A stretch of DNA of 11,574 bases from Prevotellaceae bacterium (lineage in GTDB: Bacteria > Bacteroidota > Bacteroidia > Bacteroidales > Bacteroidaceae), in assembly GCA_021204165.1 (NCBI GenBank), contig JAJPZU010000112.1, forward strand, positions 1-11,574. Direction: 5' to 3'. Made by a program: the position numbers and the translations under genes. Position 1 is the stretch's first letter; each line of letters opens with the position of its first letter. The notes below the pieces were generated by a model that was not told the DNA's origin, ran no database searches, and worked only from the letters and a program-made list of their open reading frames with translations. Of the stretch, positions 2,309-11,574 are shown in pieces.

Positions 2309-3835
2309 TTATACTCTCAACACACCCTTCTGCAATCCGAATGTTCTCCAGCGATTGATGGCGGACTGTCCCTGTTTGCATTCAGCCGCCCCACCGGTAT
2401 TTTCCTCCAGATTCATAAGGTAGTCTATGTAGGCGGCAATCACCGCCATCTCTTCGCTCTCGTTCTTGAATCCCGGACGCGGACGCAGACGCTCCGCATT
2501 GCGCTCTATAAAATAGGTGTTGTAGTTTCCTTCACGGAAATCAGGCACATCAATGATGCGGCGCAAGTAGCGTATGTTCGTAGTCAGACCGACAATCTTA
2601 TATTCATACAGCACTCTCCTCATGCGCTCAATGGCATACTGTCTCTCCGTAGCCCAAACGATAAGCTTTCCAATCATCGGATCGTAATGTACGGGAATCT
2701 CATAGCCCTCATATACATAGCTGTCGATTCGGATACCAATGCCGTGAGGCTCTGTGAGCTGAACAATCGTTCCCGGCGAAGGCATGAAGTTATGCTCCGT
2801 ATCCTCCGCACAGATGCGGCACTCTATGGCATGTCCTCTTTGGCGGATATCCTCCTGACGGTAGCCCAGCGGTTGTCCGTCAGCAATAAGAATCTGCTGT
2901 TTCACAAGATCGACGCCGACAACTTCTTCCGTGATAGGATGCTCCACCTGAAGCCGGGTGTTCATTTCAAGGAAATAGAAATGATGGTGCTTATCCACAA
3001 GAAACTCAATGGTGCCGGCACCGATGTAGCCCACCGCTTTTGCCGCAGCCACCGCCTTCTCGCCCATTTCGCGGCGAAGAGTGTCATCAATAAACGGCGA
3101 CGGACTTTCTTCTACTATTTTCTGGTGACGACGCTGCACAGAACATTCGCGGTCGTAAAGATGGATGACATTGCCATGCTTGTCGCCAAGTATCTGAAAC
3201 TCTATGTGGTGAGGCTCCTCGACAAACTTTTCGATATAGACTGTATCATCGCCAAACGAAGCCATCGCCTCGTTCTTTGCCGCATTGTACATCTCTATCA
3301 CATCTTCTTCGCGTTCAATAAGTCTCATGCCTTTTCCGCCGCCACCCATAGAAGCCTTCAGCATCACGGGGAAGCCAATCTTTCGGCACACCTCCAAGGC
3401 TTCCTCGCCACTGCTCAATTGCTCCTGAGTTCCGGGCACAACGGGCACTCCCGCCTTTATCATCTGTATGCGGGCGGAAATCTTGTCGCCCATCAATTCC
3501 ATGGTTTCCGGCTTTGGACCGATGAAGATGATGCCTTCAGCTTCACAACGACGCGCAAACTCGGAATTTTCGGAAAGGAAACCGTATCCCGGGTGAATGG
3601 CATCCACTTTGTGCTTCTTTGCCGCCTCGATAATGTGGTCGATATTCAGGTAGCTGTCTGCCGACGACGCACCGCCGATACACTCTGCTTCGTTTGCAAA
3701 AACGACATGGCGCGACAGACGGTCGGCAGTGCTATAGACAGCCACAGAACGTATGCCCATTTCATAACAAGCACGCATCACCCGAATCGCAATCTCACCG
3801 CGATTGGCAACCAATACTTTTCTTATCATAAACAT
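2309..3835 (-). CDS. accC: Biotin carboxylase (ATP-grasp) subunit of acyl-CoA carboxylase
   Basis: 508-aa ORF with KVLVANRGEIAIRVMRA at the N-terminus, the glycine-rich ATP-grasp loop LKASMGGGGKGMR, and EMNTRLQVEHPITE. M1 or M3 could be the true start. Confidence 0.95.
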   Translation of the reverse strand: MFMIRKVLVANRGEIAIRVMRACYEMGIRSVAVYSTADRLSRHVVFANEAECIGGASSADSYLNIDHIIEAAKKHKVDAIHPGYGFLSENSEFARRCEAEGIIFIGPKPETMELMGDKISARIQMIKAGVPVVPGTQEQLSSGEEALEVCRKIGFPVMLKASMGGGGKGMRLIEREEDVIEMYNAAKNEAMASFGDDTVYIEKFVEEPHHIEFQILGDKHGNVIHLYDRECSVQRRHQKIVEESPSPFIDDTLRREMGEKAVAAAKAVGYIGAGTIEFLVDKHHHFYFLEMNTRLQVEHPITEEVVGVDLVKQQILIADGQPLGYRQEDIRQRGHAIECRICAEDTEHNFMPSPGTIVQLTEPHGIGIRIDSYVYEGYEIPVHYDPMIGKLIVWATERQYAIERMRRVLYEYKIVGLTTNIRYLRRIIDVPDFREGNYNTYFIERNAERLRPRPGFKNESEEMAVIAAYIDYLMNLEENTGGAAECKQGQSAINRWRTFGLQKGVLRV

Positions 3836-6700: not shown

Positions 6701-6899
6701 ATTCTAATTAGTTTTACGGTTATATAAATCATATTCTGAAATGATATGTCCACCATCTATTTTACAAAGAGGGAACATCCTTAAAAAAAATAACATTACC
6801 AGACTGCATTTTTCATTAAACACTCTCCTTCTCACTGCATTTTCATAATTCATAAAAGACTCCGATTAATTATTTTAATGATAAATGCCAATCTTATAA

Positions 6900-7580
6900 T
6901 TACCATACATATTGCGATGGATATTTTACTTGCATGAAAGTGAAGCCATGCCCCATTACGCTATGGTGAGAAGTCGTCTGTGCTGTCATATTTGATACAA
7001 TACTGCCAAACACCTGCATATTTGCTCTTGCGTCACCGCGTGAAGCAAGAATGGGTGCATCAGGGACATCGTAATCGCGCCATGCAAATAAGCAGACCTT
7101 TTGGGGATATGTCAAGAGATTTACAGCTGTTGTAGATTCTTGAATCAAAACTTCTATCGATTTAAGCATTTGCTGTCTGGCTTTTGCCCGTTTCCCTTCC
7201 GGGTATTTTCCCGTATTAGGCTCAACATATTTTTCCTCATAACAACACAAGTCACAGAATACAACTTTTTCATGTACCATTCCTGTCTCTGTCATTAATA
7301 AATCACATCGGTCTTTAATATTGGCAGTAGTGCCTGCAAATTGTTCGATATACTTTTCAAAACGAACCACAGCAATTTCCTTGCCATTATTATTCACCTT
7401 CAGAACTTCTTTATTGCATTCATTACGGTAAGCCCTTTCAGGCAATTGCTGACATCGTATGCAACTCTTGGAGTCGGTTTCTGAGAAAGGTTCGCGTATT
7501 CTGTAGAGAGGCACTTCTACTTCTTGTGGATTTATGCCATAATGGAGCGGGAATGCCTTTTTAAGAAAAGATTCTATCAT
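6900..7580 (-). CDS. Hypothetical 226-aa Cys-rich protein, putative effector partner of the upstream ATPase; no family assigned
   Basis: Uninterrupted 226-aa ORF whose ATG overlaps the ATPase stop (ATGA at 7577-7580). It contains CIRC (CxxC) and CDLCC cysteine clusters. Possible catalytic-type strings are LLMTETG, YEEK and WRDYDVPD. I recognise no family signature. Confidence 0.7.
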   Translation of the reverse strand: MIESFLKKAFPLHYGINPQEVEVPLYRIREPFSETDSKSCIRCQQLPERAYRNECNKEVLKVNNNGKEIAVVRFEKYIEQFAGTTANIKDRCDLLMTETGMVHEKVVFCDLCCYEEKYVEPNTGKYPEGKRAKARQQMLKSIEVLIQESTTAVNLLTYPQKVCLFAWRDYDVPDAPILASRGDARANMQVFGSIVSNMTAQTTSHHSVMGHGFTFMQVKYPSQYVW

Positions 7581-8737
7581 ACGTCAAGATTTACAAATTC
7601 ATTATAAATGTGACTCATCAACTCTGAGAGGTCGTAAGTATCTACAATCCACCGTCCGCGTTCATTTTGGACAAGCAAATCTTGTATCTCTCCTTCATAT
7701 ATTCGATAAACAGCCGTGTTAGTCCTGCTCAATTGGGCACGTACTGCATTTGTTTGGTTTAGTAAAACATTCAAGTAGTTAAGAATATACGGACTATGGG
7801 TCGCAAGCATCATATTAATTTCTCGATTTTCATCCGCATGTGTTGCCGACAGCACAATTTCTTCTATGAGTTTGCACTGTGCATCAGGGAACAGACTTAA
7901 CTCAGGTTCTTCAATATGGATATATACTTGTTTCTTCAAATCGCTGGGTTCTGCGACAGCCCGAAACTTGTTCAATCTTTCCATATCATACAGATAGTTC
8001 AGGACAGAGCGCTTGAATGCGTCCTTAAATGAAAAGCCATTTGCGCTGGCATAGTTCTTTACAATCAAAGCGACCGATGCTGACGTTTGAATGCCGGATG
8101 AAGCTTCTCGTAAGTCGATTGGCTCATGACGGCTGTCATTTGGAATGACGGTGTAGCGTGTAGGCTTACCTTTGGGGTGGGTTATCTGAAGCTTCATGCC
8201 TATATAGTCCAACGGTATCTCTTTGTCGTTTGCCGATGCTCTGACAAAATCATTGTTTGTTTCATGAAAATAAAATCCCAAGGTTGCACCTGTGTTTTGG
8301 GATGCCTTTTGCGCCCATGTCGGAATGATGTTTCGGTTTTCAGAGATATAGGACACTTTGTTGAACACCAAATGGTCAGAAGATATAATGGGAAGTCTGC
8401 CTAATTTCTTGTTTTCCATCAAGATGGTGTATTCCGTTTCATCATCCATGACTACACTATACCTAATTACACTTGACGAGTCAAGCATTTTATACATTCC
8501 CGTTTCTTTCATCATCGAATCGAAGCGCATCCTGAAAGGAGAGCTTGTTATTTTTGAATGCTTCAAATAAGAACGGATGTTTGCCATTTTGTACAGATAG
8601 CGCATCATGCTTATCAGCTTCATCAGTGTGCTTTTACCACTTGCGGATTCACCAATCAACACAGTGAATGGCAGAAGGCCAAGGTTCTCAATGTGCTTTA
8701 GCGGACCAATATTTTTAATTGTTATAAATTCCTTCAT
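7577..8737 (-). CDS. Stand-alone ABC/SMC-like ATPase (AAA_15/AAA_21-type), defence-associated architecture
   Basis: Walker A is LIGESASGKSTL, the Walker-B-like strand is VYIHIEEPELSLFP, and the H-loop-like motif is LATHSPYILNYL. The ORF track extends to 8815, but MKEFITIKNIGPL (ATG at 8735-8737) matches the usual N-terminus of this ATPase class, so the 26-aa extension is probably not translated. Confidence 0.88.
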   Translation of the reverse strand: MKEFITIKNIGPLKHIENLGLLPFTVLIGESASGKSTLMKLISMMRYLYKMANIRSYLKHSKITSSPFRMRFDSMMKETGMYKMLDSSSVIRYSVVMDDETEYTILMENKKLGRLPIISSDHLVFNKVSYISENRNIIPTWAQKASQNTGATLGFYFHETNNDFVRASANDKEIPLDYIGMKLQITHPKGKPTRYTVIPNDSRHEPIDLREASSGIQTSASVALIVKNYASANGFSFKDAFKRSVLNYLYDMERLNKFRAVAEPSDLKKQVYIHIEEPELSLFPDAQCKLIEEIVLSATHADENREINMMLATHSPYILNYLNVLLNQTNAVRAQLSRTNTAVYRIYEGEIQDLLVQNERGRWIVDTYDLSELMSHIYNEFVNLDV

Positions 8738-8916
8738 AATAAAGTTTTGTTTTTCAAACAATCTGATAAAGTATGATTTACCCAATAAAGATACTAATTT
8801 GTACTTCAACAGCAAAAAAAATCCTGTATTGTGACGCTAAAAACGTGAATTTATTACAGAAATGGCACTTTGTCATGTCAAATCAGAAGGTGAAGTGTCA
8901 AAACAGGAGATACAAT

Positions 8917-8956: not shown

Positions 8957-9478
8957 CTAATCCTCCAGCCAGTCCTCCGACAAACTGAAGTCCTTGTCCG
9001 CAAACAAGTCCGCCAGCCCGGAAATCTGCTTCAGCCTCAACAGCTCATCCTTGTCCATGCCGATATTGCGCATAATCCACGCATCCGACATGCCCGCAGA
9101 CGTAAGCTCCGACACGATGTGGCTCATCAGCTCTATCGTGTGCGTACCCCTCGCCCTGTTATGACGTATGGTCGAAGCCATTCTGCACGAAATATCCTTG
9201 TCTATCACCGACACGGGAAGCATCCCCTTCTCCCTGTCATAAATTCGTTTCGATGTCTTCATCACCAGATAGCGGTGGAATCCATCTACAATCTCATACT
9301 TGTCCTCGTCCTTCAAGTAATAGCACACGCAAGGCATGGTGTACCCGTCCTCCCATATCGACAGTTCCAACAGCTTCATCTCCGGAGGAGCCACCATGTT
9401 GGGGTTATAATTGTTCGCCACCACTTTCTCGATAGGCACTGCTATCACATTATATACCGGACTCTTAAAATTTTCCAT
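8957..9478 (-). CDS. ParB/sulfiredoxin-fold domain protein (IbrB-like / DndB-like)
   Basis: 173-aa ORF with ANNYNPN and EIVDGFHRYLV (a ParB-type DGxHR box). Its start overlaps the end of the PAPS-reductase-family gene by 14 nt. Confidence 0.85.
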   Translation of the reverse strand: MENFKSPVYNVIAVPIEKVVANNYNPNMVAPPEMKLLELSIWEDGYTMPCVCYYLKDEDKYEIVDGFHRYLVMKTSKRIYDREKGMLPVSVIDKDISCRMASTIRHNRARGTHTIELMSHIVSELTSAGMSDAWIMRNIGMDKDELLRLKQISGLADLFADKDFSLSEDWLED

Positions 9479-10763
9479 ATTCCAATGCTTTATATTTTCT
9501 CATCACACTTTCTCGTCTGCTCTTCTCATTCTTGGTCAGGGTAAAGCCCATGTACTTACACACATGGTCGTTTCTCAGTATGCAGATGCAGACACGCTTG
9601 AATGTCGGAATCTCCCGAAACTCCGGAATGTCTATGTCGTCAACGTACTCCATCATGACCGGTCTTTTGTTAGTGCGGTATGCCGTGGTCGTCCCAACCG
9701 TAAACTTCACCCCTGCCGCACGCAATTTTTCAATGGTCTCATCGCTCAGACATCCGCCTTTCGTCCTCCAGAATCTCATGCTCACACCTATCTTGTCCAG
9801 ATAATTGCGGCACACCTTCTCCGGCAACGTGTCCAGCAGAAAGTACATGTACTTTTTCCAAGAAAATCCGTGAGGACATTTTATCGACTTCCATCCCATA
9901 GCCGTCGTATTCCCGTAGATGCCGGAAAAATTGACACCATTGACACGGCTGACCATCCGCCCCCACATGTCGGGGTCTATCGCCCGATAGACACTCAGCG
10001 TAGGTATGGCATGAGAAATGAACGGACTTGCCACCCGCTGCCGCCCAATCGGAATGCCCGCACGCGAATAAAGGTCATAAAGCGGATTATAAGTCCATCC
10101 GAATTTTCCGTTTGCCGTCCAGATGTCAGATGTTTTCCAGTCATAAAGCGGATAAGCGTTATACACATGTGCAGCAAGCTTATGTGTCCATTTGTAATGC
10201 GAAAGCCGCCGGTAGTTCTTGGCATTGTGTATGGCCGTCCACCGGTTAAAACTCTCCTGCGTCCTTATGCCTACAAGACAACATATACGTTCACATTTCT
10301 TCCGGTTGCGCAGCCAAGGGGCGAAAAGATACTGGAAGTCATAGTCCCACAAGGCATCAGTGAAGAAATTGAAATCGGCTGCCGTATAAGCCCCCTCAGG
10401 CATTTCCCTCACCCATATATCCTTCTCCGATTCTCCCCAAGGTCTCCAATACGACTGGTGCATGGATGTACAGGTCATGACTTTGAAGGGCACGCAACAA
10501 TGGTACACCTCCAGAATGTCGCGATTCTCCGACAGGGTACGGCGCACATACTCCGTGGTCTGCCGGTACTGCACCTCGTAGTCCATGTGGAACACACCCA
10601 GCTTACGTCCCGGAGCATACCTCCGTATATAGTCTATGCACAGATTCAACAACACTCCGCTGTCCTTGCCACCCGAAAACGAGACATACACATAATCGAA
10701 ATAATCGAATATGATCTTCAGCCTCCTTTGCACTGCTTCATAAACATCAAGTTGCCTAATCAT
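9465..10763 (-). CDS. Phosphoadenosine-phosphosulfate (PAPS) reductase-family PP-loop protein with extended C-terminal domain (IbrA-like / DndC-like)
   Basis: 432-aa ORF with the PP-loop ATP-pyrophosphatase motif VSFSGGKDSGVLL near the N-terminus. The long Trp/Tyr-rich C-terminal extension resembles IbrA-type proteins. It is paired with a ParB-like gene. Confidence 0.88.
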   Translation of the reverse strand: MIRQLDVYEAVQRRLKIIFDYFDYVYVSFSGGKDSGVLLNLCIDYIRRYAPGRKLGVFHMDYEVQYRQTTEYVRRTLSENRDILEVYHCCVPFKVMTCTSMHQSYWRPWGESEKDIWVREMPEGAYTAADFNFFTDALWDYDFQYLFAPWLRNRKKCERICCLVGIRTQESFNRWTAIHNAKNYRRLSHYKWTHKLAAHVYNAYPLYDWKTSDIWTANGKFGWTYNPLYDLYSRAGIPIGRQRVASPFISHAIPTLSVYRAIDPDMWGRMVSRVNGVNFSGIYGNTTAMGWKSIKCPHGFSWKKYMYFLLDTLPEKVCRNYLDKIGVSMRFWRTKGGCLSDETIEKLRAAGVKFTVGTTTAYRTNKRPVMMEYVDDIDIPEFREIPTFKRVCICILRNDHVCKYMGFTLTKNEKSRRESVMRKYKALEYGKF

Positions 10764-11164
10764 TCCTTACGTCCTCCGGCATATACCATCTTGTCATAAT
10801 TCTTCCATTCCCTATGTGTCCTGAAGCCGTTGCGTGCAAAGTCAGCCACATGACGCTTGTGTACGACTGCGGTCAGCACAGTCCTGCTCACCGACTCCGC
10901 CACCACCCTGTCGAGCAGAGCATCAATGAGCAAAGAATCGTCGCCCTTGATATAATAATTGTCAATACAGGCTTCACGCTCTTTCTCCTTTACCGGAATG
11001 AATCCGATTACCTCCTTTTTCTCTATGGCCACATACCATTTGTGATGACGGGAGGTCTTGAAGGGATAATTGTTGTTGAGCCTCAACACTGCCGCATTCA
11101 TCACCAGCGGTGCCACCAGCTCATAAAGGCGGGAAGATGTGCCTTCTAAAATCTCAATATTCAT
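10760..11164 (-). CDS. Small GNAT-like (acetyltransferase-fold) protein, function unknown
   Basis: 134-aa ORF whose stop overlaps the next start (ATGA at 10760-10763). The C-terminal VADFARNGFR resembles the GNAT motif-B region, but the usual R/QxxGxG/A acetyl-CoA loop is not evident. The fold call is therefore tentative. Confidence 0.55.
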   Translation of the reverse strand: MNIEILEGTSSRLYELVAPLVMNAAVLRLNNNYPFKTSRHHKWYVAIEKKEVIGFIPVKEKEREACIDNYYIKGDDSLLIDALLDRVVAESVSRTVLTAVVHKRHVADFARNGFRTHREWKNYDKMVYAGGRKE

Positions 11165-11312: not shown

Positions 11313-11320
11313 CAAAAGTA
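11313..11320 (-). promoter_or_regulatory. Candidate -7 promoter element (TACTTTTG on the minus strand) for the GNAT-like/PAPS-reductase/ParB operon
   Basis: Exact TAnnTTTG match on the minus strand, about 150 nt upstream of the first gene of the operon (ATG at 11162-11164). No other gene lies between. No -33 element is seen. Confidence 0.35.
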
Positions 11321-11424: not shown

Positions 11425-11574
11425 TTTTAAGCTTGTCTATTTAACGGACTCCTCATGTGTATTTAGTGGAATGTTTTTATATTTGGTGGGGTGTTCTCGG
11501 CAGACTCCTCATGTGTGAATTGTATGTGTTAGCAGACGTTTTCGACAGACTCCTCCGTCGCTACCGCGCCACCT
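11425..11574. repeat. Right arm of the window-bracketing inverted repeat: 37-nt terminal core (11538-11574) plus three inverted iterations of the GAGGAGTCTG motif
   Basis: CAGACTCCTC / CGGACTCCTC occurs at 11546-11555, 11501-11510 and 11445-11454. The reverse complement of 11425-11457 (catgaggagtccgttaaatagacaagcttaaaa) aligns with the left arm at 97-129. The core ends exactly at the last base of the window. Confidence 0.85.

Follow-up and report, generated by a model that had tools for sequence, protein, structure and literature searches.

IbrA and IbrB are an annotated protein pair that has remained biochemically uncharacterized since 2002. In Escherichia coli ECOR-9, IbrAB is reported to activate the prophage eib genes (Sandt et al. 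2002, as cited in PMC8065619), which is the one phenotype reported for the family. In E. coli K-12 the orthologous genes are arranged as ybdM-ybdN-citR (locus L009), the gene of the LysR repressor YbdO/CitR lying upstream of ybdN. Deletion of ybdO (citR) raised ybdN by 5.5 log2 and ybdM by 2.5 log2, together with cysDNC, cysJI and cysAWU by 2.0–2.8 log2 (PMC9068703, Table 1); the authors of that paper do not appear to comment on the cys genes. Their rise could reflect a sulfur demand created by YbdNM. Here we describe an operon of three genes, A, B and C, in a window of 11,574 bp that is a whole contig of a gut Prevotellaceae metagenome-assembled genome (MAG). B and C are of IbrA/IbrB type, and A adds to this known pair a GNAT-derived third member that is fixed in Bacteroidota. 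We found no description of such a triad in the literature searched, and no mechanistic study of IbrA/IbrB, ybdN/ybdM, DUF3440 or the combination of a PAPS reductase with ParB.

Several better-described systems employ the same folds. TilS, MnmA and ThiI are PP-loop nucleic-acid modifiers with an SGGxDS loop that act on tRNA and carry RNA-binding domains. The roles of DndB and DndC in DNA phosphorothioation have been described (PMC10853773), DpdB is the ParB-like ATPase of the Dpd system for 7-deazaguanine modification of DNA (PMC12839542), and ParB-fold proteins bind diverse nucleoside triphosphates (NTPs; bioRxiv 10.1101/2025.10.10.680097).

An operon with an IbrA/IbrB core

The operon lies on the minus strand, as do all credible genes of the window, and comprises the following features.

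10760–11164, minus strand: gene A, 134 aa, GNAT-fold protein, first cistron of the operon
11054–11077, minus strand: invariant loop NNNYPFKT (A residues 30–37)
10937–10954, minus strand: degenerate acetyl-CoA loop Y71-I-K-G74-D-D76 of A
9465–10763, minus strand: gene B, 432 aa, IbrA/YbdN-type
10659–10682, minus strand: PP-loop SFSGGKDS (B residues 28–35), the ATP pyrophosphatase signature
9525–9614, minus strand: C-terminal Cys-pair module of DUF3440 (B residues 384–413)
8957–9478, minus strand: gene C, 173 aa, IbrB/YbdM-type protein of ParB/Srx fold
9146–9415, minus strand: three ParB-type nucleotide-pocket motifs of C (NxYNPN, VDGFHR, RHNRARG)
9398–9415, minus strand: NNYNPN (C residues 22–27)
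9272–9286, minus strand: DGFHR (C residues 65–69; VDGFHR, 64–69)
11313–11320, minus strand: TACTTTTG, a candidate −7 promoter box of Bacteroides type, some 150 nt before the A start, read from the sequence

An earlier note on this DNA had proposed three overlapping genes carrying the motifs SFSGGKDS, NNYNPN and DGFHR. The open reading frames (ORFs) and both overlaps were found in the window sequence, and all three motifs were located in the B and C proteins. A and B share a 4-nt ATGA at 10760–10763, in which the TGA stop of A overlaps the ATG of B; B and C share 14 nt, ATGGAAAATTTTAA, at 9465–9478. We regard the three ORFs as real genes because B and C match family models strongly and A has homologues that form 249 clusters at 90% identity.

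The B protein consists of a PAPS-reductase-fold domain (PF01507, residues 26–230; 2.7e-12, 47.5 bits, cut-off 22.5) followed by DUF3440 (PF11922, residues 236–415; 1.1e-87, 292.9 bits, cut-off 25). It matches phrog_2302 (1.4e-98) and aligns over its full length with E. coli YbdN (BLASTP 1e-65, 31% identity, residues 5–430), some relatives of which are annotated as 'IbrA family prophage gene co-activator'. C is 50% identical to E. coli YbdM over 161 residues (3e-53) and matches phrog_2159 (1.3e-77); YbdM is listed in RefSeq as an 'IbrB-like domain-containing protein'. From this homology and these annotations B and C are therefore an IbrA/IbrB-type pair, as the earlier note had suggested.

IbrA is well conserved, with 60–83% identity between Bacteroidales families. 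The PP-loop SFSGGKDS, a GIRxxES motif, a P-x-x-D-W block and two cysteines are invariant across Bacteroidota, E. coli and Streptococcus phage homologues. The cysteines, C392 and C402, lie at the end of DUF3440 in the pattern R-x-C...ND-x-x-C, together with the invariant N398 and D399. Beyond its own family, B gave weak NCBIfam matches to the TilS N-domain (5.5e-4) and LarE, and weak partial PADLOC matches to BrxP and to DndC (24 bits, residues 157–233 only). IbrA had no match among PDB sequences. No CysH model occurred among the NCBIfam matches of B, and the ECG(L/I)H motif is absent from its sequence.

In C, the motifs NxYNPN, VDGxHR and RHNRARG (residues 105–111) and a C-terminal GMDxxExxRxKQ are invariant or nearly so in an alignment of 81 sequences that includes E. 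coli and phage homologues. By position the first three presumably correspond to ParB boxes I–III and are followed by a tail that we take to be helix-turn-helix (HTH)-like; Pfam gave no HTH_ParB match for C. The pocket motifs are intact, and C is thus predicted to have an NTP pocket. Weak matches to Noc point to the same fold (TIGR04285, 1e-4; PDB 7ol9, 0.0017). DGFHR also resembles the GCHR motif of Srx.

The A protein has the secondary structure of a GNAT-fold protein, but the label 'acetyltransferase' is doubtful because the acetyl-CoA loop motif has been lost. In place of the pyrophosphate-binding Q/R-x-x-G-x-G/A of GNAT motif A, alignments showed Y71-I-K-G-D-D76, with a family consensus of xGDD that retains the central Gly74 alone, and Phe109 occupies the position of the usual catalytic Tyr. 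No Pfam family, and hence no Pfam GNAT family, was matched at E ≤ 0.1; the rimI model gave 17 bits (cut-off 86) and PDB sequences weak GNAT matches only (E 0.15 and 1.1). Of the GNAT-like third gene proposed in the earlier note, the fold stands and the acetyltransferase assignment is doubtful. In contrast to GNATs such as RimI and PseH, the A family has invariant motifs of its own: NNNYPFKT (columns N30, N31, Y33, P34, F35, K36 and T37 of a 30-sequence alignment), IDNYY, D75 and HKRH. The invariant residues map on or next to β4, the β4–α3 loop and β5, at the site of the GNAT cofactor and substrate cleft, and the NNNYPFKT loop would occupy the position of the GNAT α1–α2 substrate loop. Judged by this conservation, the site looks functional, though it is probably not a standard acetyl-CoA site.

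Compared with Dnd, the pairing of folds is the same: a PP-loop, PAPS-reductase-like ATP pyrophosphatase with a ParB-superfamily protein, in which the DGQHR of DndB resembles the DGFHR of C. The earlier description of the locus as a minimal DndC-DndB-like module therefore applies to the folds, but not at the level of family models. B reached 18.1 bits against DndC (TIGR03183), for which the cut-off is 290.4, and for DndB the likeness is confined to the DGFHR motif, with no PADLOC family at E ≤ 0.1 for C and no DndB among its NCBIfam matches. B differs from DndC, and likewise from SspD and BrxP: the DndC Cys set is missing, DUF3440 takes its place, and no restriction module is linked to it here. 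The absence of DndA, DndD and DndE, also noted before, was borne out by Pfam and NCBIfam searches of the window and by the lack of a conserved fourth gene in the survey below.

Dpd provides a precedent for a ParB-fold NTPase, DpdB, that assists a DNA base-modifying enzyme; here there is no DpdA-type (TGT-like) enzyme, DpdC or QueC, and the enzyme partner is a PP-loop ATPase. With TilS, MnmA and ThiI, IbrA shares the SGGxDS loop, and its two-Cys arrangement would be compatible with a persulfide relay; adenylation followed by substitution, as in these enzymes, is the chemistry that IbrA may perform. The similarity is weak and confined to the PP-loop region. No ParA was found in the window, and in searches against PADLOC-DB 2.0 A and C had no matches and B only the partial BrxP and DndC matches given above. 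The locus is thus not a Dnd/Ssp phosphorothioation system, a sulfate assimilation locus, a ParABS system or a complete defence system.

Conservation of the triad and its relatives in phages

A survey using one genome per species recovered at least 80 Bacteroidota loci, and all counts for the triad refer to the 80 that were listed. They come from Paraprevotella, Bacteroides, Phocaeicola, Alistipes, Barnesiella, Coprobacter, Butyricimonas, Odoribacter, Muribaculaceae, Rikenellaceae and Petrimonas, and from the Chitinophagaceae Niabella and Flavitalea. Hidden Markov model searches of the ORFs placed A directly upstream of IbrA in 72 of the 78 loci that could be assessed (two lack upstream sequence), and IbrB directly downstream in 75 of 78 (two are cut by contig ends). 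The GNAT-like gene is therefore co-conserved with the pair, a point on which the earlier proposal depended. The gap between A and B was mostly −4, −1 or +2 to +3 nt, and that between B and C mostly −4 or −14 nt. Three contexts of A homologues, each from a different genome, all had the order A-IbrA-IbrB with differing neighbours.

Clustering of all flanking ORFs in the 80 loci yielded no fourth conserved gene. The next commonest neighbours, each in at most 12 loci, are of housekeeping type: a GalE-like epimerase, a response-regulator/sensor-kinase hybrid, an unidentified protein and a transporter-like membrane protein, as assigned by eye from their sequences. Upstream of A, many orthologous loci have a TAnnTTTG box, which we take to be the Bacteroides-type −7 promoter consensus, at a distance of 20–40 nt. 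Such boxes were the only common element in the upstream regions of more than 70 loci, where no conserved leader or riboswitch was found and Rfam detected nothing. Given the tight junctions, the co-conservation, the lack of a fourth gene and the boxes upstream of A, the triad is an autonomous, translationally coupled chromosomal operon that begins with A.

Some loci depart from this arrangement. Three Bacteroidota loci without A (L033, L046, L079) have an SNF2-type helicase upstream, as in Streptococcus phages, and in another (L055) this helicase is combined with a divergent A. An IbrA-IbrB fusion that is clean and in frame was seen in one protein (P0233); two others (P0199, P0225) were rejected as fusions since they contain internal duplications and are likely assembly artefacts. 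Apart from a viral ORF (L121) described below, no other clean in-frame fusion was recorded. An apparent A-IbrA fusion (P0433) proved to be a frameshifted read-through.

We also observed two Odoribacteraceae MAGs (L052, 3612–5278; L078, 91–1760) in which an A variant with NENVAFKT in place of NNNYPFKT is followed by IbrA with no IbrB downstream; in L078 the gene after IbrA encodes, by eye, an XRE-type HTH protein in a phage-like context. In a Parabacteroides MAG, about 1.9 kb without a called gene follows IbrB (L003, 10217–12151; L004, 6607–8541; L005, 5949–7882). One protein (P0476) is a chimera of A residues 1–64 and IbrB joined at a shared PVEK/PIEK, possibly an assembly or recombination artefact.

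The A family is small: a profile search of 1.84 billion representatives returned 311 members. A occurred in 6 of 2.9 million viral contigs, several of these at contig ends; the three 'phage' records that contain it are unverified faecal scaffolds, and three 'plasmid' records are large, non-mobilizable and from Bacteroidales. In effect, A is a chromosomal Bacteroidota invention. Some homologues (P0390, P0391) carry Lys-rich or AT-hook-like C-terminal tails (RGRP; KRRGRPRKKK), an anecdotal hint that A may act close to DNA.

The IbrA/IbrB pair itself is very widespread, being core in E. coli, common in gut Bacteroidota and present in Firmicutes phages and even in Asgard viruses. In E. coli, ybdNM was found in 5421 of 5426 complete genomes, some of which have extra copies, and at 84 places on plasmids. 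YbdN/YbdM and ECOR-9 IbrAB have the same two-protein core as the Bacteroidota operon, with the IbrA-then-IbrB order, overlapping ends and a chromosomal location; they differ in having no GNAT-like gene, whereas Bacteroidota add A as a first cistron with its own promoter region.

Phage modules (phrog_2302 plus phrog_2159), such as those of Streptococcus phages CHPC1062 and PY3 and Pseudomonas phage Amjad_SA, share the core as well, with 53–55% identity for the Streptococcus phage IbrA. IbrB adjoins IbrA in 66 of the 80 viral IbrA loci that were sampled for context. In Streptococcus phages an SNF2-type helicase precedes the pair. In phage Amjad_SA the neighbours of the pair are a second ParB, an IbrB-like protein and a superfamily 2 helicase. 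The small proteins upstream of IbrA in the Streptococcus and Pseudomonas phages were rejected as A homologues (hhalign probability <1%). Helicases recur across the sample: the SNF2 type is found upstream in 33 of 80 loci, the DEAD/ResIII type in 12. Several loci contain DNA methyltransferases, and modules occur beside DNA polymerase A and clamp-loader genes. ParB_N is also found fused to phage DNA methyltransferases (phrog_498 match). The commonest viral accessory, in 35 of 80 loci, is a protein of about 143 aa without a Pfam or PHROG family (for example L175, 8194–8625), which does not accompany the Bacteroidota triad. An ectoine-synthase-like cupin (PF06339, 8.9e-39) occurs in 12 of 80, mostly directly after IbrA, as in L171 (4089–4490), where a fusion of a uracil-DNA glycosylase domain with PolA and then an intein-containing clamp loader follow. 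Phage modules usually travel with a helicase, the 143-aa protein or the cupin in early or replication modules; all of these are missing from the window, which is not phage.

A minority of the viral modules has acetyltransferase-type partners, one of them homologous to A. Several unrelated ORFs of this type abut IbrA in at least six loci (L108, L109, L121, L141, L146, L182). The protein encoded between IbrA and IbrB in phage L182 matches Pfam Acetyltransf_1 (30.2 bits, cut-off 20.7) and aligns with the A profile over 115 columns (hhalign 85%, 6e-6), and it keeps R-Q-K-G-V-F where A has Y-I-K-G-D-D. Because this protein bridges family A to true GNATs, family A is, as judged by profile comparison, a derived and loop-degenerate branch of genuine GNAT partners of IbrAB. 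By analogy with EctA/EctC chemistry, the cupin and GNAT partners together may hint at an adduct that carries an amine.

The last ~40 residues of DUF3440 (SYKxxC...ND..C..GFS.xK.E) stand alone as a protein of 80–85 aa beside IbrA in seven viral loci (for example L171, 2546–2788, and L145, 5796–6053). This module matches PF11922 positions 138–178 and the B protein of the window (BLASTP 4e-07). In L121 (5344–5997) an in-frame fusion joins it to an A-like GNAT domain, and this links the GNAT partner to the Cys-pair part of IbrA.

What the operon may do

The three genes probably encode a single complex of three proteins. We tentatively favour the reading that this is an ATP/NTP-dependent, DNA-directed modification or regulatory complex, which we consider possible, though short of probable. 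IbrB would bind an NTP, load on DNA and recruit IbrA. IbrA, with ATP, would adenylate a group on the nucleic acid, and a nucleophile would then replace AMP; this could be sulfur passed on from the Cys pair, as in MnmA and ThiI, or an amine, as in TilS. A, presumably descended from the true acetyltransferase partners of the phage versions, would now serve as a specificity or regulatory subunit, or handle an acyl or amine group from a different donor. The output would be a covalent DNA mark, altered transcription of target loci, or both, altered transcription being what E. coli IbrAB brings about at the prophage eib genes. Several things argue for a DNA target: the helicases, polymerases and methyltransferases around the viral modules, the ParB fold, the AT-hook tails of some A proteins, and the precedents of DndB/DndC and DpdB.

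A number of observations weigh against this assignment. The family has no member for which a modified base, binding to DNA or an enzymatic activity is on record, and the literature searched offers only 'co-activator of prophage gene expression'. C scored 19.1 bits against Pfam ParB_N (PF02195), below the cut-off of 26.3, so that its ParB assignment rests on the weak but consistent Noc matches and the YbdM homology. The invariant cysteines of IbrA are two only, without an iron–sulfur-type Cys set, DUF3440 has no assigned fold, and A, from which the acetyl-CoA motif is absent, may be catalytically dead. Neither an effector nor a restriction partner is linked to the operon. A regulatory or metabolic role would account just as well for the core-gene behaviour in E. 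coli and for the housekeeping flanks, and the induction of the cys regulon together with ybdNM (Table 1 of PMC9068703) could mean small-molecule sulfur chemistry.

A rival to this reading is a purely regulatory module. VirB is a ParB-family regulator, and IbrB might similarly be an NTP-gated DNA-binding or anti-silencing factor that changes transcription without any DNA chemistry, with IbrA and the GNAT-like protein as sensor or cofactor subunits. Such a purely regulatory role would explain the eib phenotype, the HTH-like tail and conserved NTP-pocket motifs of C, the degenerate cofactor loop of A, as expected of a non-catalytic subunit, and the standing of the E. coli orthologues as core chromosomal genes under a dedicated repressor. 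We nevertheless think it unlikely: the PP-loop and GIRxxES of IbrA do not vary between phyla, nor in lytic phages, which argues for real enzymatic turnover, and a transcription factor would be out of place among the helicases, polymerases and cupin enzyme of phage replication modules. If IbrA is an enzyme, its substrate might be RNA, most likely tRNA, since the PP-loop ATPases closest to it in chemistry mostly modify tRNA. IbrA would then act on an RNA base in the manner of TilS, MnmA, ThiI or TtcA, with the GNAT-fold protein as an RNA-directed partner. The weak TilS N-domain and LarE matches, the two invariant cysteines, as in iron–sulfur-independent thiolases, and a sequence conservation and core-gene status that suit a housekeeping RNA role are in line with this. 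The obligate partner, however, is a ParB-fold protein with an HTH-like tail, a DNA-associated fold, viral modules are linked to DNA helicases, DNA polymerase and DNA methyltransferases, and Pfam detected no THUMP, PUA or TRAM RNA-binding domain. Action on RNA is accordingly improbable in our view.

We give similarly little credence to two further accounts. One is small-molecule sulfur or nucleotide metabolism, with IbrA resembling a PAPS reductase or sulfurtransferase, IbrB an Srx- or SerK-like phosphotransferase and A an acyltransferase. No sulfate-assimilation genes lie nearby in the 80 Bacteroidota loci and the viral context is one of replication and helicase genes; B has a canonical ATP-pyrophosphatase PP-loop with no CysH-type ECGLH and no match to a CysH model, and C has kept its HTH-like tail. 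These points stand against the Pfam PAPS_reduct match of B, a weak SerK match of C, the likeness of DGFHR to the Srx motif, the cupin and acetyltransferases beside phage IbrA, which recall an EctA/EctC metabolite pathway, and the rise of the cys regulon by 2 to 2.8 log2 on ybdNM derepression (PMC9068703, Table 1). The other is anti-phage defence or anti-restriction, in which the system would mark self DNA or deplete nucleotides on infection. The occurrence of family members on phages and islands, the weak BrxP and DndC matches of B and a pair of genes with a PDC-M29A-like AAA ATPase directly downstream would suit such a role, which is nonetheless very doubtful. That ATPase pair is a separate low-GC insertion that is absent from the syntenic relative L001, no nuclease or effector is linked, nothing beyond the three genes is conserved and the pair is core in E. 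coli. An identity of 60–83% for IbrA across Bacteroidales families, and of 50% to E. coli for IbrB, is also unlike fast-evolving, patchily distributed defence genes.

Within the favoured reading of a DNA-directed complex, a bolder version holds that the triad is a widespread gut Bacteroidota machine that installs an undescribed covalent DNA modification. This is rather a long shot. With IbrB loaded on DNA, adenylation by IbrA of a carbonyl on a base or of a group in the backbone would be followed by substitution with sulfur or with a group that bears an amine, the equivalent on DNA of lysidine or thiouridine chemistry; choice or processing of the donor would fall to the degenerate GNAT subunit. 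In phage versions, true GNATs or an EctC-like cupin would build this adduct up further into hypermodified bases, and E. coli YbdNM would be a cryptic, repressor-silenced version of the same chemistry.

The comparative data turn a long-standing y-gene pair into concrete hypotheses and offer experimental entry points: the helicase, GNAT and EctC-like partners in phages, the portable Cys-pair module, carried by IbrA or by a GNAT domain, and the AT-hook tails of some A proteins. If the complex modifies DNA, dominant bacteria of the human gut would have a new mark, epigenetic or anti-restriction in kind; if it does not, it would be a new use of the ParB fold and a PP-loop enzyme in gene regulation.

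Neighbouring genes and other features of the window

From high to low coordinates, the window contains A, B, C, the AAA ATPase, a 226-aa protein, an NfeD-like gene, a flotillin gene, a cobalamin riboswitch and a carboxylase operon. The two genes that follow C are:

7577–8815, minus strand: AAA_21/AAA_15 ATPase, 412 aa from a TTG start (386 aa by the gene caller)
6900–7580, minus strand: 226-aa protein, overlapping the ATPase gene

Against PADLOC, the ATPase matched the candidate system PDC-M29A (2e-26) and AriA (3e-14), and the 226-aa protein had no match in Pfam, PADLOC, PHROGs or PDB, so the likeness of the pair to PDC-M29A is limited to the ATPase. The two genes have a GC content of 0.38–0.42 and belong to an inserted segment of about 2 kb (roughly 6790–8870). 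In the syntenic L001 the NfeD-like gene directly follows IbrB. We rejected the two genes as part of the triad system, given their low GC, their absence from L001 and their lack of conservation in the 80 loci; they form an inserted defence-candidate cassette that is separate from the triad.

The earlier note had associated pairs of this kind with mobile elements. For the triad in this window an origin on a mobile element is not supported. Its GC content of 0.47–0.50 matches that of its flanks, which are housekeeping genes; integrases, transposases and a tRNA context are absent from the window ORF list, and in E. coli the orthologues belong to the core genome. A search for parS-like repeats around the operon gave just short repeats at chance level, and scans for sigma-70 promoters and terminators stayed at background.

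At the contig end, 11447–11555 contains two sets of direct repeats: GACTCCTCATGTGT, present twice (11447–11460 and 11503–11516), and GTT[CT]TCG[GA]CAGACTCCTC, also present twice (11493–11510 and 11538–11555). At the other side of the window, a cobalamin riboswitch (RF00174, 4053–4296, minus strand; 71.6 bits, E 2e-16) sits between the flotillin gene and an operon for biotin carboxylase (2309–3835), biotin carboxyl carrier protein (1674–2192) and carboxyltransferase (227–1681). From this position, the B12 riboswitch apparently controls the biotin-dependent acyl-CoA carboxylase operon.

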